Part shown: in pieces, positions 28,879 to 35,700 of the stretch | How positions within the stretch are numbered: the first letter of the stretch is position 1 | How the letters are laid out: the number at the start of each line of letters is the position of its first letter | Assembly: GCA_025358525.1 (NCBI GenBank) | Contig: JANYJI010000111.1 | Location: 1-39,071, forward strand | Reading direction: 5' to 3' | DNA: 39,071 nucleotides | Origin: Chloroflexota bacterium | Lineage (GTDB): Bacteria > Chloroflexota > Limnocylindria > Limnocylindrales > CSP1-4 | The notes under the pieces: model-generated | The model's input: only the letters and a program-made list of their open reading frames with translations | Told to the model about the DNA's origin: nothing | The model's database searches: none | Translations under genes and position numbers: made by a program

Positions 28879-29952
28879 CTAGGTGCGCGGGTTGCGGCGG
28901 CGCGGTTCCGCCGACCCGGGAGTGGCTTCGGGAGTGGCTTCGGGAGGTCGTGCAGCTTCGTTCGAGGCAGGCTGGCGACCGGGGTCCACCTGCCCGGCGG
29001 CGATGTCAGCGTCCAGGCGGGCCATCTCGCCCCGCAGCTCACGGCTCGGCGGCCTCAGCGCGGCTGCGTCACTCGGCGGTGGCGCATCTGTTTCCGAGCT
29101 CACGGCTGTGTCGCTAAAGATCATTTTGAGCAGGCTCGATCGCCTCTTGCCGCCTCGGGACGCCTGGGCGTAGGCACGTAATTCGGGCTGGACCTGCGTC
29201 AGACCGGAGATAGCCATGGAGTCGGCTGCCGGAGCGTTGAGCGAGGCTTTGCAGGTGGGACAGGTCGTGGCTTCGACGGCCACGCTGGCCGAACACCATT
29301 GGCAGATTGTCCCGGCCGCCGCCTTCCTGATTTGCTTGCGTCTACCCGTCCGGGTCCCGGCCGATGGCGGGGGCTCAGGCGGCACGCCGGCCGATGCGAT
29401 CGAGGCCGTCGTCATCGGCTCCAGGACGGGCGTGGTCCAGGCCGTCGATTCTATGGCGGCCCCTGGTGCGGCGTTGGGATCTGAGGGATCGTCGCCAGCC
29501 GGCTCGGCCACGTCGAAGACCCAGGTTTGGAGTGGGCCAAAGCGCTGCCTGGTACCGCCCACACCCTCCGCAGCTTTCTCCAATTGCAGCAGCCGCCCGC
29601 CGACTGCCATGGCAACCGCGCCGACCAGAACCGGGAACCCGAAGGCGCGGCCAAGCTGATCGGGAGCCAGGAAGACGCCGACAGCTGCCATGCCGACCGC
29701 CGTTGCGTATAGATTGCGGTGCGCACTTACGGCGAACATGGCCATGGCCAGCGGAATCGCGGTGACGAGCGCGGCGGCCACGAAGACCCACACAAGGACG
29801 GCGGCCGAAATTCCGTAGACGGTCGTGGTCGGCACCGGCCCCTCGCCCTGGTTCAGGCCGAGGAACTGCGACGCCACCAGGCCTGCCATCGCCCCAACTG
29901 GAAGGGACGCCCAGCCGATAAAGATGGCGATCGCGGCCTGGACTCTGCGCAC
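28879..29952 (-). CDS. Hypothetical membrane protein (4 N-terminal TMs) with a cytoplasmic zinc ribbon
   Basis: TM helices, Pro-rich linker, CQWC..CPTC; GGGAGAG SD before the GTG. Confidence 0.7.
   Translation of the reverse strand: MRRVQAAIAIFIGWASLPVGAMAGLVASQFLGLNQGEGPVPTTTVYGISAAVLVWVFVAAALVTAIPLAMAMFAVSAHRNLYATAVGMAAVGVFLAPDQLGRAFGFPVLVGAVAMAVGGRLLQLEKAAEGVGGTRQRFGPLQTWVFDVAEPAGDDPSDPNAAPGAAIESTAWTTPVLEPMTTASIASAGVPPEPPPSAGTRTGRRKQIRKAAAGTICQWCSASVAVEATTCPTCKASLNAPAADSMAISGLTQVQPELRAYAQASRGGKRRSSLLKMIFSDTAVSSETDAPPPSDAAALRPPSRELRGEMARLDADIAAGQVDPGRQPASNEAARPPEATPEATPGSAEPRRRNPRT
28917..28946. repeat. 12-bp tandem repeat (PEAT units)
   Basis: CGGGAGTGGCTT x2.5. Confidence 0.85.
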
Positions 29953-30060: not shown

Positions 30061-31677
30061 CTACTCCCACTCGATTGTGGCGGGCGGCTTCGAGCTTATG
30101 TCGTACACGACACGGTTCACACCGGGCACTTCGTTCACGATCCGAGCGCTGATCTTCCCAAGGACCTCATACGGGAGCTTGGCCCAGTCGGCGGTCATCG
30201 CGTCCTCTGAGGTGACCGCGCGGATGGCGACGAGGTTGCCGTAGGTTCGTCCGTCGCCCATGACTCCAACCGACCGAATGGGCGTCAGGATCGCAAACGA
30301 TTGCCAGACTTCGTGGTACAGCCCGGCCGCCTTGATCTCATCGAGGACGATCCAGTCTGCCTCGCGGAGGGTATCGAGCCGATCCGCCGTGATCTCGCCG
30401 ATGATTCGGATGGCCAGACCGGGGCCGGGGAAGGGCTGGCGCTGGACCATCGAGTCGGGCAGGCCTAGCTCCGTACCTACGGCCCGGACCTCATCCTTGA
30501 AGAGGTAGCGCAGTGGCTCGATCAGCTGGAAGGTCATGTCGTCCGGCAGGCCACCCACATTGTGGTGGGTCTTGATCTTGCTCGCCGACTTCTCCTTGTC
30601 GGATGTCGCCGATTCGATCACGTCGGGGTAGAGCGTGCCCTGGGTCAGGAAGGCGATTTCGCCGAGCTTTGCCGCCTCCTCCTCGAAGACCCGGATGAAC
30701 TCGTTGCCGATGGCGTGGCGCTTCTGCTCGGGGTCCGTGATGCCGGCCAGCTTGCGCAGGAACCGCTCTCGGGCGTTGACGACGATGACGCGCACGCCGA
30801 GCTGATCGAACGCCACCTGGAGCAGTTCCGTCTCGTTCTTTCGCATCATGCCGTTGTCGACGTGGACGCAGATCAGGCGGTCGCCCACGGCGCGGTGGAC
30901 GAGGGTCGCGGCAACGGCCGAGTCCACGCCGCCGGAGAGGGCGCACAGGACCTTGCCGTCCGTACCCGTGGCGCGGCTGTGGTCATCGACGCGACGGCGA
31001 ATCGCCTCCACGTTGGAGGCGATGAAGTTGGCGGGGGTCCAGGTTTGGCGGGCGCCGGCGATGTCCACAACAAAGTTGCGCAGGATGTCGCGGCCGCGTT
31101 TGGTGTGAACGACTTCGGGGTGGAACTGGATGCCATACATCTTGCGTTCCGTGTGGGCGACGGCGGCGTACGGGGTCGAATCGGTTCGGGCTGTCGGGCG
31201 GAAGCCGTCCGGCAGGCGTTCGATCGAATCGCCGTGGCTCATCCAGACCGACTGCTCGGGCTCGATGCCGGCGAAGAGGCCCTCCTGGTCGGTCACCGAG
31301 ACGACGGCCGGCCCGAACTCCTTGCGCTCGAACGAGACAACCTCGCCGCCGAGCGCCTCGGCCATGAGGTGCAGCCCGTAGCAAATGCCGAGGATCGGGA
31401 TGCCGCCGCTCCACAGCGCGGGATCGGGGTGGGGCGAGCCGTCTTCGTAGACGCTGGCGGGACCACCGGAGAGAATCACTGCCGCCGGCTTGCGGGCGGC
31501 GATCACGCTCCATGGGGTGTCGAACGGGAGCAGCTCGGAGTAGACGTTGAGTTCGCGGACGCGGCGGGCGATCAGCTGGCTGTACTGGCTGCCAAAGTCC
31601 AGGACCACGACCGAGGCCACGTCTGCGATGGCCTCGCCAGGAGGCTTCGTTCTATCCGCCACTTGCCCGTCCCTCAA
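30061..31677 (-). CDS. guaA: GMP synthase (glutamine-hydrolysing)
   Basis: [81 protein letters not shown] motifs; GGAGG SD; TAGACT -10 at 31705-31710. Confidence 0.98.
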
Positions 31678-31806
31678 TCTCCGCCTCCGCTTCAGTTGCC
31701 GCTAAGTCTAGCGGTCGAAGGGGCGCTCATACCTCAACGAGAGGGGACCGGCGCGCCTGGCGAGGGTCAGCCTCGCGCCGCCTGCTCATCGACGCCCCGG
31801 GAAGCG

Positions 31807-32619
31807 CTAAGTGCCCTGGCTGGGGCCGCGGCTGGCGGCGGGCGCAGTCTGTGGTCCTCCCGGGATCGAGGCTGAGCGTGGCCGGGCGGATGGATCGCTA
31901 GCTGCGCGCGGTCTGACCCTCATGGAGCCGCCTGGACGTCGCTTAGCGCTTCCCCGGGCGTCATTGAGGAGGAACCAGATGCCGCGCATGTCCCGATCCG
32001 ACGTCTTGAGCCAGCCGAGAACATTGGCGGTCCGCTCGGGAAGCGCGGCCGTGAAGACCGAATCGAAGCGATCCACCGCGTTTCGCGCCCATGTTTCCGC
32101 CGGCACCACCAGTACGCTCCCGACCACTAGCGGCCTCCAGTCCTCCGCACGGGCGATGCTCGGTGCCAGGCGGCGCTTCTTGTCCATGGTCGCAAGTAGA
32201 TCCTGCAGGTCGGCCAGCTTGGTCTTGACCTCGACACAGAGGAGGGCACGGGTGGCGGGCTGCCAGGCGAGCACGTCTACGGAGCCGCGTTCCCCCCAGA
32301 CGTTGAATGTGTGCTCGGGAAAGGCTTGCCAGCCAAGGCCGGTCAGCCTCGTAACAACTGCCCGAACCAGTCGGGCGTGCCTCTCATCGAGGAGTGTTGC
32401 CGCCTCGGCTCCGCGCCACCGGGCCTCGAGTTCAAGCGTGATGCCAAGCGCGGTCGACACGCGCCGGACGAGGCGCATCGAGGTGTGTTCCAGCAGGCCG
32501 CGTTCGATGCTCGACACAACCGCCCGGCTGATGCCTGCCGCCTCCGCAACTTGCCTTTGGCTCATGCCGCGCCTGATTCGGACCGCTCGAAAGACCGACC
32601 CGACTTTCGCGTCATCCAT
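31807..32619 (-). CDS. XRE-family HTH fused to a PD-(D/E)XK restriction-endonuclease-like domain
   Basis: R.RRGMSQRQVA.AAGISR..VS.IERG HTH; C-terminal E..F...GERGSVDVL...LCVEVKT with a D...EVK nuclease motif. Confidence 0.8.
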   Translation of the reverse strand: MDDAKVGSVFRAVRIRRGMSQRQVAEAAGISRAVVSSIERGLLEHTSMRLVRRVSTALGITLELEARWRGAEAATLLDERHARLVRAVVTRLTGLGWQAFPEHTFNVWGERGSVDVLAWQPATRALLCVEVKTKLADLQDLLATMDKKRRLAPSIARAEDWRPLVVGSVLVVPAETWARNAVDRFDSVFTAALPERTANVLGWLKTSDRDMRGIWFLLNDARGSAKRRPGGSMRVRPRAASDPSARPRSASIPGGPQTAPAASRGPSQGT

Positions 32620-32622
32620 GTC

Positions 32623-32667
32623 GCGACCTTACCGGCGGTCGCTCATCGCAGGCTTACTTTGCGATGA
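32623..32667 (-). promoter_or_regulatory. Leaderless promoter (TAAGGT-N6-ATG) with two inverted repeats; candidate autoregulatory operator
   Basis: -10 at 32626-32631; GCGACC-N8-GGTCGC (32623-32642) and TCATCGCA-N9-TGCGATGA (32643-32667). Confidence 0.55.
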
Positions 32668-32736
32668 ACGCCGATTGCATGGAGTGTCCCACGGTGAGGT
32701 TGCTGAGGTTCTGCGCGGAGCCCGATGACTGGGCCA

Positions 32737-35700
32737 CTAGTCGTCCAGGTTGGGGGCGAGCCAGCGCGCAGCTTCGTCCACGGACCAGCCCTTGCGCCGT
32801 GCGTAGTCCTCCAGTTGGTCGCGGCCGATGCGGCCGACGCCGAAGTAGTGCGCCTCGGGGCGCCAGAAGTAGAAACCGGAGACAGACGCCGACGGCAGCA
32901 TCGCGAACGAGTCGGTCAGGCTGATCCCGGTCCGCGCCTCGGCCTCGAGCAGCGCGAATAGGGTCGCCTTCTCGGAATGTTCCGGGCAGGCCGGGTAGCC
33001 GGGGGCAGGTCGAATGCCTTGATACTCCTCGTGGATCAGCGCGGCGTTGTCCAACGCCTCGTCCGGCGCGTAACCCCACAGCTCACGGCGGACCCGCTCG
33101 TGGAGTCGCTCGGCGAAGGCCTCGGCGAGGCGATCGGCCAGGGCCTTGACCATGATGGCGCTGTAGTCGTCGTTGGCGGCCTCGAACTGAGCGACCAGCT
33201 CGGCCGAGCCGGCGCCAGCGGTCACGGCGAAGCCGCCGAGATAGTCCGGTGTGCCGGCGACGCGCGGCGCCACGAAATCGGCCAGCGCCTCGTTGGGGCG
33301 GCCGGGCTGCTTCTCCATCTGCTGGCGAAGCGTGTGGACGACCGCGAGCGTGGCGGCACGGGCGTCTGGTTCCTGACCGGCTCCCGGCCCCCCGTCGGCA
33401 CGCGAGGCTCCCGGCTCCCCGTCGGCACGCGAGGCTCCCGGCCCCCCGTCGGCGTACAGCTCGATGTCGTCGCCGACCGAGTTTGCCCGCCAGAAGCCCA
33501 CGACGCCTCGCGCCCGCAAGAGCCGCTCCGAGACGATGCGGTCGAGCAACCGGCGGGCGTCCTTGTACAGCGGACGCGCCGACTGACCCAAGACGGGTGA
33601 ATCGAGGATTGCCGGATATGTGCCCTTCAGTTCCCAGGCGTTGAAGAATGGGGTCCAGTCGATCCGCCCCGCCAACTCCTCGAGGGGGTAGTCGTCGAAG
33701 GTCCGAACGCCCAGGAAGCTCGGCCGGGGAGCGGGCACCGACAGGTCCACCGGCGTCCGATTAGCCCGCGCGGCCTCGATGGAGACACGGGTGATGCGTT
33801 CCTGGCGTCCGGCGCGCTCAGTCCGAGTCTGCTCCTGGTCCGCTTGGACTCCAGCGGCATACGCCGCCGCGCCGTCACCGAGCAGCTTCGAAACAACGCC
33901 CACCGCCCGCGACGCATCTGCCACGTGCACGACCGGCGCGGAGTAGCGAGGCGCGATCTTGACCGCGGTGTGGGCACGTGACGTTGTGGCACCGCCGATC
34001 AGCAGCGGCAGGCGCAACCCCTCCCGTTCCATCTCTGCGGCGACGTGGGCCATCTCTTCGAGCGACGGCGTGATCAGGCCCGACAGCCCGACCACGTCCA
34101 CGTTTTGGGCGCGGGCTTCTTCCAGGATGCGGGCGGCCGGAACCATCACCCCCAGGTCGACGACTTCGTAGTTGTTGCACTGCAGGACCACACCCACGAT
34201 GTTCTTGCCGATGTCGTGGACGTCCCCCTTGACCGTGGCCATGAGGATCTTGCCGCGCGCCCGGGTGTCGCCGGCCGCCGCCTTCTCCGCCTCGAGATAC
34301 GGCACGAGGTGCGCGACCGCCTTCTTCATGACGCGGGCGCTCTTGACGACCTGCGGCAGGAACATCTTGCCGGCCGCGAACAGGTCTCCGACGGCGTTCA
34401 TGCCGGCCATCAGCGGGCCCTCGATGACATCGATTGTGCGGGCGGCCGCGAGGCGTGCCTCCTCGGTGTCCACGACCACCCAGCTATCGATGCCCTCTAC
34501 CAGGGCGTGCCGCAGGCGATCGATGACCGGCCATTCACGCCAGGCCAGGTCTGCTTCCGCTCGCGCTGAGCCCGAGCCGGCGTACTTCGGGGCGATCTCG
34601 AGGAGCCGATCGGTCGCGTCCGGGCGGCGGTTCAGGACGACATCCTCAACGCGTTCCAGCAGGTCGGCGGGGACCTCCGAGTACACGGCCAGCTGGCCGG
34701 GGTTGACGATGCCCATGTCCATGCCGGCGGCAACGGCGTAGTAGAGGAAGACGGCGTGCACCGCCTCGCGCAACGTGTCGTTACCGCGAAATGCGAAAGA
34801 GACATTCGAGACGCCGCCCGAGATTCGAACGCCGGGCAGCTCGGCCTTGATCCGCCTGACGGCCTCGATGTAGGCGACGGCGTAGCCAGCGTGCTCCTCG
34901 ATGCCGGTCCCAATGGCAAAGACGTTGGGGTCGAAGACGATCTCGTCCGACGGAAACCCGACCTGCTCGGTCAGCAGCCCGTAGGCGCGCCGGCAGATCT
35001 CGACCTTCCGTTCGACCGTGTCGGCCTGGCCCTTTTCGTCGAATGCCATGACGATGACCGCCGCGCCGTAGCGGCGAGCCAGCCGCGCCTGGCGCAGGAA
35101 CTGCTCCTCGCCCTCTTTGAGTGAGATCGAGTTCACGATCGGCTTGCCGCCGACGCAGCGCAGCCCGGCCTCGATCACGGACCACTTCGACGAGTCGACG
35201 ACGATGGGCACGCGGGAAATCGCCGGCTCTGAGGCGACGAGATTGAGGAAGCGCGTCATCGCGGCTTCCGAATCGAGCATGGCCTCGTCCATGTTGATGT
35301 CGATCGCCTGGGCGCCGCCGTCCACCTGGCGACGGGCAATGTCGAGGGCACTGTCATAGTCGCCATCGACGATGCGGCGGGCGAAGGCCCGCGACCCCGA
35401 CACGTTCGTCCGCTCGCCGATGTTGAGGAAGAGGCTCCCCTCGCCGACGTTCAGGGCCTCGAGGCCGGCAAGACGCAGGGCCGGCGGCCGTTCCGGCACG
35501 CTGCGCGGCGCCAGGCCGCGGGCCGCCTCAGCAAATGCGGCCACGTGCGCCGGGCCCGTTCCGCAGCAGCCGCCGACGATATTGACGATGCCGGCCTCGG
35601 CGAAGTCGCGAATAACCGCGGCCATAACCTCGGGCGATTCGTCGTATCCGCCGAACTCGTTGGGCAGGCCGGCGTTGGGGTGCGCGGCCACGAACGTGTC

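Follow-up and report, generated by a model that had tools for sequence, protein, structure and literature searches.

A gene on the reverse strand of contig JANYJI010000111.1 from a Chloroflexota bacterium (assembly GCA_025358525.1; the 39,071 nt of this contig are the window analysed here) encodes a protein in which a helix-turn-helix (HTH) domain of the XRE type is fused to a domain with the PD-(D/E)XK nuclease fold. This HTH-nuclease gene belongs to a large family of paralogues which are inherited vertically for the most part, and it probably does not control itself but is one of the targets in a DNA-processing regulon found throughout the genus. The favoured account as a whole, in which we have moderate confidence, holds that an HTH-guided nuclease, present as a set of paralogues, would be made from a leaderless tandem-box promoter as part of a DNA-processing regulon which is set by another factor. 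Nuclease activity and biological role of the protein are inferred. The genome, called G000 in the following, is a metagenome-assembled genome (MAG) of 2.58 Mb in 260 contigs with a completeness of 84.56%, and all genomes with which it was compared are MAGs as well.

The reading frame extends from the ATG at 32619 down to 31807, with the stop codon at 31807–31809 included, and codes for 270 amino acids, for which 268 homologues were found at E <= 0.001 (the best at 1.1e-150). The Pfam family HTH_3 (PF01381) matched residues 11–63 with an E value of 1e-11 and 45.1 bits compared to a cut-off of 23, and the XRE/Cro-C1 HTH domain was assigned to residues 1–66 (32422–32619, reverse strand) from this score, from fold matches and from a dimer prediction. 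An AlphaFold2 model of the protein, built from 27 family sequences and with a mean pLDDT of 84.2, begins with an N-terminal domain of five helices, which a linker connects to an alpha/beta domain comprising residues 80–221 (31957–32382, reverse strand), and ends in a disordered basic tail. The elements of the alpha/beta domain follow each other as helix 79–94, strands 98–107, 110–120 and 125–131, helix 138–158 and strand 165–173, which is the alpha-beta-beta-beta-alpha-beta core of the PD-(D/E)XK nucleases. The tail (residues 222–270, 31810–31956 on the reverse strand, pLDDT about 47–56) is rich in arginine and proline and contains a conserved GGSMRVRPR stretch, in which arginine 234 is found in 140 of 150 aligned family sequences.

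Structure searches against representatives gave the same picture for both halves of the model. Residues 1–70 matched HipB, HigA2, and C.AhdI with Z scores of 10.8–11.0 over 63–69 residues, in agreement with the five-helix fold of XRE proteins. The nuclease domain matched seven chains at Z 8.0–10.7: XisH (2okf, Z 10.7, root mean square deviation 2.7, 112 residues), AF1548 (1y88, Z 9.9), NucS (2vld, Z 9.2, 104 residues), the defence protein Upx (9wuf, Z 8.7), SPO1766 (3dnx, Z 8.5), Can2 (8bao, Z 8.2), and Card1 (6wxw, Z 8.1), with the top matches (Z 8.7–10.7) spanning 104–119 aligned residues. A first-pass annotation made from the letters of the window had proposed a fusion of an XRE HTH to a restriction-endonuclease-like domain; the HTH_3 score, these fold matches and an intact catalytic motif bear it out.

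The catalytic motif itself was examined in an alignment of the protein with 149 representatives of clusters formed at 50% identity, which are 28–63% identical to it. Four columns proved to be invariant in all 150 sequences, glutamate 102, aspartate 115, glutamate 130, and lysine 132, and no others, while positions of the HTH vary. Glutamate 102 (codon 32314–32316) is the first acidic residue of the motif, aspartate 115 (32275–32277) the D of PD, and glutamate 130, valine 131 and lysine 132 (32224–32232, all on the reverse strand) are the ExK motif, so that the pattern E ... D ... (D/E)xK characteristic of this nuclease class is present. The signature GSVDVL ... CVEVKT which the first-pass annotation had read as a nuclease motif is contained in the translation, the former part with aspartate 115 and the latter with glutamate 130 and lysine 132. 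Judged from the alignment, such an invariance is the signature of a site selected for catalysis, and it is mainly because of these four residues that the domain is read as an active nuclease, which would cleave DNA internally with the help of metal ions, the HTH dimer bringing it to its DNA.

A profile built from the seven paralogous nuclease domains of G000 retrieved a single solved chain, the C-terminal nuclease of Upx, at an E value of 0.0028. Aspartate 115, glutamate 130 and lysine 132 fall on aspartate 1161, glutamate 1176 and lysine 1178 of Upx by way of the pattern G-x-x-G-x-x-D-x-x-A-W ... E-x-K, and the Upx report names these three residues as active site and describes that an E1176A/K1178A mutant loses defence (PMC13099982). 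Upx is a dual-nuclease defence protein of 1272 residues without an XRE-HTH, whereas the protein of the window has only 270 amino acids, occurs in many copies and joins the nuclease domain to an HTH of 66 residues.

The remaining systems to which the protein bears a likeness differ from it as well. XisH, the fdxN element excision controlling factor, is the best structural match of the nuclease domain, but it is a stand-alone chain of 129 residues without an HTH and shows no match at the sequence level. NucS/EndoMS also combines an N-terminal DNA-binding part with a C-terminal PD-(D/E)XK domain, yet its N-terminal domain is a different one, sequence similarity is absent, and NucS usually occurs as a single copy. 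The Rpn (YhgA-like) proteins of E. coli are several solitary PD-(D/E)XK paralogues scattered between housekeeping genes; they belong to a different family with a different domain order and have no XRE-HTH. The HTH resembles the controller (C) proteins of restriction-modification systems such as C.AhdI, C.BclI, and C.Esp1396I (profile E value 9.8e-9 to C.BclI, Z 10.8 to C.AhdI), and some controller genes are leaderless. In contrast to these proteins and to fusions of C proteins with restriction endonucleases, no methyltransferase or restriction partner was found at the window locus or at 15 family loci, and where C boxes are palindromes, the conserved elements described below are direct repeats common to unrelated genes.

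In the dimers of HipB and HigA the HTH and the strand following it are the elements which are also predicted to pair here (Z 10.8–11.0). When two copies of residues 1–225 were modelled together, pairing was predicted via the HTH domain and the strand 58–68, residues 60–68 of one copy lying against residues 60–68 of the other. The homodimer score was 0.47, the best of three controls reaching 0.01, and the runs shared at least 68% of their contacts with a partner pLDDT of at least 84. Of 30 proteins with solved one-chain pairs, 20 attain the mark used for calling a dimer, as does one of 23 solved as single chains. The XRE HTH thus probably dimerises through its HTH domain and strand 58–68, but the pass may mirror the likeness to XRE dimers already solved. 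HipB and HigA act as antitoxins or repressors and have their toxin as a separate partner, while the protein described here carries a C-terminal nuclease fold and has no conserved partner gene. Given the symmetry of the modelled dimer, a site with dyad symmetry would be a better match for it than direct repeats.

The first-pass annotation regarded the gene as solitary and as a single-gene cassette, which has to be abandoned. Seven full-length copies of the family, with open frames of 251–274 amino acids, were found in G000, the other six being 37–55% identical to the query, so that the gene is not single-copy either. A truncated HTH-only relative came to light on contig C14 in a scan for the promoter. 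A 218-amino-acid HTH_31 protein on contig C166 (6431–7084) with the same boxes upstream, the HTH of which is confirmed by Pfam, has a tail that by eye looks like a diverged nuclease fold with EAE replacing ExK. This protein may represent a remote offshoot of the family which is possibly inactive. In the genus, 21 of 24 genomes gave 2–13 matches at E <= 1e-10, counted as matches and not as strict copy numbers. A profile search of the three genomes without such a match gave HTH-only matches in two of them (G004 and G011), while in the third (G020) it picked up a fragment of the C-terminal part where a contig ends. None of 16 genomes of the sister family contained a family match.

A profile search of the full library yielded 2013 clusters at 50% identity (E <= 0.001), 557 of them at E <= 1e-30. 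From a scan of one genome per species 463 related stretches were obtained, of which 80 were kept; 75 of these 80 carry labels of the Chloroflexota/Limnocylindrales type and five those of other phyla, and on this sample the family is almost confined to the Limnocylindrales within the Chloroflexota. The five loci with odd labels (L161, L167, L179, L194, and L195) come from bins assigned to Steroidobacteraceae, Polarisedimenticolia, Verrucomicrobiia, Gemmatimonadales, and Dormiibacterota. Four of them show the same promoter boxes with scores of 21–35, which suggests mis-binned Limnocylindrales contigs or a transfer along with the promoter. Among 50,697 phage records and 72,556 plasmid records no full-length relative was detected, the matches being HTH-only (three and four, respectively).

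In the open reading frames (ORFs) flanking 15 family loci, Pfam recognised genes of metabolism and transport, further chromosomal genes and a single tyrosine recombinase, but no methyltransferase, no recognised defence gene and no conserved partner gene. One paralogue position is kept across species next to lipA (six loci), and in about ten genomes another lies, by coordinates, within a few kb of comEA. The family is thus for the most part old and passed on vertically, and now and then a copy has been duplicated into a new intergenic site.

The window copy occupies such a site. Its flanking genes were confirmed by Pfam as metH, coding for the B12-dependent methionine synthase, and guaA, coding for GMP synthase, as the first-pass annotation had it, and with these two neighbours there is no methyltransferase, antitoxin or integrase adjacent, again in line with it. 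Occupancy of the metH-guaA slot was determined in 28 loci of the genus holding the end of metH, with the split loci L088 and L089 set aside. A family gene fills the slot in four of about 28 loci (G000, G007, G008, and G013), and in most others a rhodanese-like gene is found. In G001, G003, G010, and G018 metH and guaA are directly adjacent without the gene, which is therefore not syntenic in all relatives. In three further species, the proteins of which are 89–93% identical to the query, the gene lies upstream of guaA, with metH on the other side in two. Ahead of the rhodanese-like slot gene, the nucleotide sequence is conserved around GCTACTATTCC (for example in L061 at 2240–2780, and in L063, L075, and L081); this stretch is open in two frames and possibly represents a leader or an RNA element.

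The extent of the inserted unit can be read from a relative. A DNA contig of this relative from a permafrost metagenome (run X5) joins position 31791 to 32730 and lacks the promoter-plus-gene unit of 938 bp in between (31792–32729, reverse strand), with nine other letters in its place; this is one contig with a depth of 8.14 and a shorter side of 88 letters. In a tree of 19 family copies the window copy pairs with the slot copy of G013 (support 93/80), and both are nested in a group adjoining lipA, or an adenosine deaminase gene together with an ABC transporter. G000 and G007 each contain a lipA copy in addition to the slot copy. From the tree, the window copy would be a young duplicate of the lipA-linked paralogue, set as a 938-bp unit into a variable slot.

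A discrete presence/absence unit, a slot filled in four of about 28 loci by a copy nested in the lipA-linked clade, and matches ranging from 0 to 13 per genome are also what one would expect of a selfish free-standing endonuclease that copies itself into intergenic sites in a manner similar to intron-less homing. We nevertheless regard this explanation as very improbable. The paralogues of G000 are only 37–55% identical, which argues that most duplications are old, their positions are conserved across species, and phage or plasmid copies are absent from the records searched. The gene has the same GC content as its flanks in a composition scan. The joint 31791/32730 has no shared letters and no terminal repeats were seen by eye. 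Defined ends and recent identical copies, as expected of a mobile cassette or a homing element, are thus not found here, given the joint without shared letters and the low identity of the paralogues. The metH-guaA spacers of the genus were too diverged for an alignment that would reveal insertion ends.

The region upstream of the gene was analysed by lining up 50 family genes from G000 and related genomes on their start codons. In 39 of the 50 an RTAAGC-like word stands at −38 or −39, and 11 nt after it follows a second box with an invariant A. The conserved upstream element consequently consists of tandem RTAAGC-like boxes at −38 and −27, that is, of direct repeats with a spacing of 11 nt. 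In the window, box 1 is GTAAGC (32652–32657, beginning at −38) and box 2 is GATGAGC (32641–32647, beginning at −28), both on the reverse strand. A motif NANNNT ending 6–7 nt before the start codon is present in 49 of 50 genes, most commonly as CATCCT, compared to 1–7 of 50 at five control offsets; in the window it is TAAGGT (32626–32631, reverse strand), 6 nt before the ATG, and is taken as the −10-like hexamer of a putative leaderless promoter. A Shine-Dalgarno sequence (GGAG, GAGG or AGGA between −18 and −5) occurs in three of the 50. The leaderless start which the first-pass annotation had deduced from TAAGGT-N6-ATG is supported in this way by a −10-like hexamer at a fixed distance from the start and by the scarcity of Shine-Dalgarno sequences, and judging from these sequences leaderless expression is probably a trait of the whole family. 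All copies would then probably be transcribed as leaderless mRNAs from one type of promoter, with boxes at −38 and −27 and NANNNT. Boxes covering the −35 position and the spacer would fit repression as well as activation by a factor which takes the place of −35 recognition. In three close relatives, conservation extends from box 1 to the ATG and stops abruptly further upstream.

The same region contains the two inverted repeats (32623–32670) in which the first-pass annotation had seen operator-like palindromes. The repeats are there: the long one has 11-nt arms at 32640–32650 and 32660–32670 which are 91% complementary, the short one has 6-nt arms at 32623–32628 and 32637–32642. They are not conserved in the close relatives with 89–93% identical proteins, however, of which one of three retains the left arm of the long repeat and one of three has a degraded short repeat. 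Across the family, dyad symmetry round box 2 is only weakly above that of shuffled sequences (mean stem 3.85 against 3.52 +/- 0.15, reached by six of 300 shuffles), and no excess of dyads was found at other centres of the upstream regions.

This weak excess is one of the observations which would fit a plain transcription factor, the XRE dimer of which binds a paralogue-specific dyad while the nuclease fold serves as a non-cutting sensor or oligomerisation module. The HTH is a typical XRE domain, relatives are labelled "transcriptional regulator" in their sources, the predicted symmetric dimer suits palindromic sites, and expanded XRE families with C-terminal sensor domains have been reported (PMC10364602; 10.1101/2020.07.29.226225). 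A non-catalytic module would not need the catalytic four, however, and in the alignment of 150 sequences no column but these is invariant whereas the HTH varies, and the palindromes of the window are not kept in the 89–93% identical relatives. The transcription factor is therefore regarded as unlikely.

The tandem boxes are not restricted to the family, and the proposal of the first-pass annotation that the gene regulates itself through its palindromes gives way to a promoter element common to recJ, ssb, comEA and other unrelated genes. A weight matrix was trained on family promoters picked for box 1. It scored at least 12 upstream of 65 of the 80 family loci from other species, and in the G000 assembly it detected 19 sites scoring above 18, as compared to one in a base-composition shuffle. 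Six of the 19 stand before full-length family genes and 13 elsewhere; the promoter of the window copy scores 16.1. Among the genes of G000 with such a site before or close to them are recJ (with DHH, DHHA1, and RecJ_OB domains), a second ssb, a ComEA-type gene (SLBB and HHH_3), which has 4–5 tandem boxes upstream, a STAND-like NTPase, genes with DUF4160 and with MerR-DUF433, and, adjoining type I restriction fragments, an XRE gene with an IrrE-like M78 peptidase gene after it. A further site lies 150 nt from a ParA-like gene, and the remaining ones lie at two ORFs without Pfam match (contigs C46 and C36) and to a short unscanned ORF on contig C169.

Across the genus, boxes with a score of at least 12 were found before recJ in 29 of 29 loci, before comEA in 26 of 28, and before the ssb paralogue in 19 of 27 (25 of 27 at a score of at least 10), in the last case mostly at a constant distance of 59–62 nt from the start; none of 400 random windows reached a score of 10. 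We infer from this that the HTH-nuclease gene would belong to a genus-wide DNA-processing regulon together with recJ, the second ssb and comEA, and the shared promoter suggests that the protein may act in DNA processing, uptake or surveillance.

Two side observations concern these box-carrying genes. At C68:871–920 of G000 (L122 and L240) the 4–5 tandem boxes upstream of the ComEA-type gene read ATAAGC with 11-nt spacing, and a family paralogue, a tyrosine recombinase gene and leuS are located at 4–6 kb from them. The box-carrying ssb paralogue (C89:3552–4061; L094, L129; loci L092–L121) retains 91–100% protein identity across species in which MetH shows about 77–88%, and in G001, G016, G021, and G005 partial copies of it lie 5–15 kb apart, as if a mobile element integrates there.

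As to the factor that reads the boxes, the family protein itself was one candidate. It is weakened in this role by G004 and G011, in which family matches are HTH-only and boxes nevertheless stand upstream of recJ, ssb and comEA, and by the mismatch of a symmetric dimer with direct repeats. For these two reasons the boxes appear to be read by a different factor, present across the genus, with the family genes as targets; the regulon would accordingly be set by a factor other than the family protein. The pair of XRE and IrrE-like genes on contig C30 was rejected as box regulator because it is found in only four of 31 genomes of the genus. This pair (C30:14012–15212, L269) lies beside type I restriction (T1RH-like_C) and SWI2/SNF2 fragments. 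A classical SOS or damage regulon was likewise rejected, as there is no LexA match in G000, an 84.56%-complete MAG, and no box at recA. The box pattern occurred 246 times genome-wide in the 24 genomes of the genus, against 120 matches of the backwards control, and 25 times against 39 in the 16 sister-family genomes; a genome-wide test of co-occurrence did not separate the boxes from the family.

A number of points weigh against the favoured account. The C-terminal domain remains under every threshold of Pfam, NCBIfam, and PADLOC, with faint sub-threshold matches to MmcB-like, UPF0102/YraN, VRR_NUC, HSDR_N_2, and Mrr_cat, and the conservation of the four catalytic residues is a sign of selection acting there but does not tell what the protein cuts. 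A simple scan for sigma-70 promoters and terminators gave no site at the gene, and contigs from two RNA libraries, about 94% alike, reach to about 58 nt upstream of the ATG. If these contigs represent RNA, a longer transcript also exists, but DNA carry-over is possible; the contigs cover parts of the gene in the relatives and are assembled only, so that start, strand and level are not readable from them. The matrix scores of the family are partly circular, whereas choosing promoters by box 1 has no bearing on the sites at recJ, ssb and comEA, and the genome-wide shuffle preserved base composition only. G004 and G011 are incomplete MAGs (83% and 90% complete). Since recA carries no box (best score −3.0), the regulon is not of the classical damage type.

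The company kept by the boxes and the relatives of the nuclease fold would also allow another reading of the function, in which the protein is an anti-phage or anti-plasmid effector, that is a restriction-like nuclease without methyltransferase which acts like a type IV enzyme or by abortive infection and is kept in several variants. Its nearest relatives include the defence nucleases Upx, Can2, and Card1 (Z 8.1–8.2 for the latter two), and the top match in Foldseek is the Shedu nuclease SduA at an E value of 3.6e-5. The same boxes precede the STAND-like NTPase, the DUF4160 gene, the MerR-DUF433 gene and the XRE plus IrrE-like pair near type I restriction fragments, and the metH-guaA slot is variable. 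The SduA match, however, has TM scores of only 0.22/0.16, and residues 70–270 gave no PADLOC or Pfam match to the Shedu profile (SduA, DUF4263). Mrr_cat, which stands for Mrr and type IV restriction, did not reach its threshold, one of seven paralogues matching it at an E value of 0.12, and all PADLOC matches fall on the HTH part. Further evidence against a defence effector comes from the flanks of the 15 family loci with their chromosomal genes and one tyrosine recombinase, from paralogues holding their position across species next to lipA or a few kb from comEA, and from the phage and plasmid records devoid of full-length matches. A defence effector is thus considered improbable, and the HTH-guided nuclease belonging to a DNA-processing regulon remains the preferred reading.

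Outside the gene and its promoter, an Rfam scan of 31000–33500 returned two sub-threshold chance matches and nothing else. A 357-amino-acid ORF at 28879–29952 on the reverse strand has hydrophobic N-terminal segments and a CxxC...CxxC stretch and gave no Pfam match at E <= 1e-5. In metH, at about 33200–33600, an in-frame low-complexity repeat of a 13-letter unit, present twice, coincides with a rise of the GC content to 0.74.

A search of the literature found no description of the HTH-nuclease family or of the boxes. In a bolder scenario, which we consider improbable, this uncultured Chloroflexota class would run an uptake and processing regulon on a previously undescribed promoter together with a battery of HTH-guided nucleases, each cutting its own dyad, as methyltransferase-less gatekeepers for incoming or resident DNA which seed intergenic copies. 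Independent of this, a family of about 2000 clusters at 50% identity has so far been labelled only as "XRE transcriptional regulator", and its nuclease domain is contained in no profile library searched. If active, it would provide a compact HTH-targeted nuclease with natural variants of specificity. About 50 natural examples on which leaderless initiation in Chloroflexota could be tested are now at hand in the upstream regions of its genes, and the boxes link recJ, ssb and comEA in one regulon without involvement of LexA or recA. The tandem-box promoter is a first handle on gene regulation in the Limnocylindria, for which there is no cultured model.

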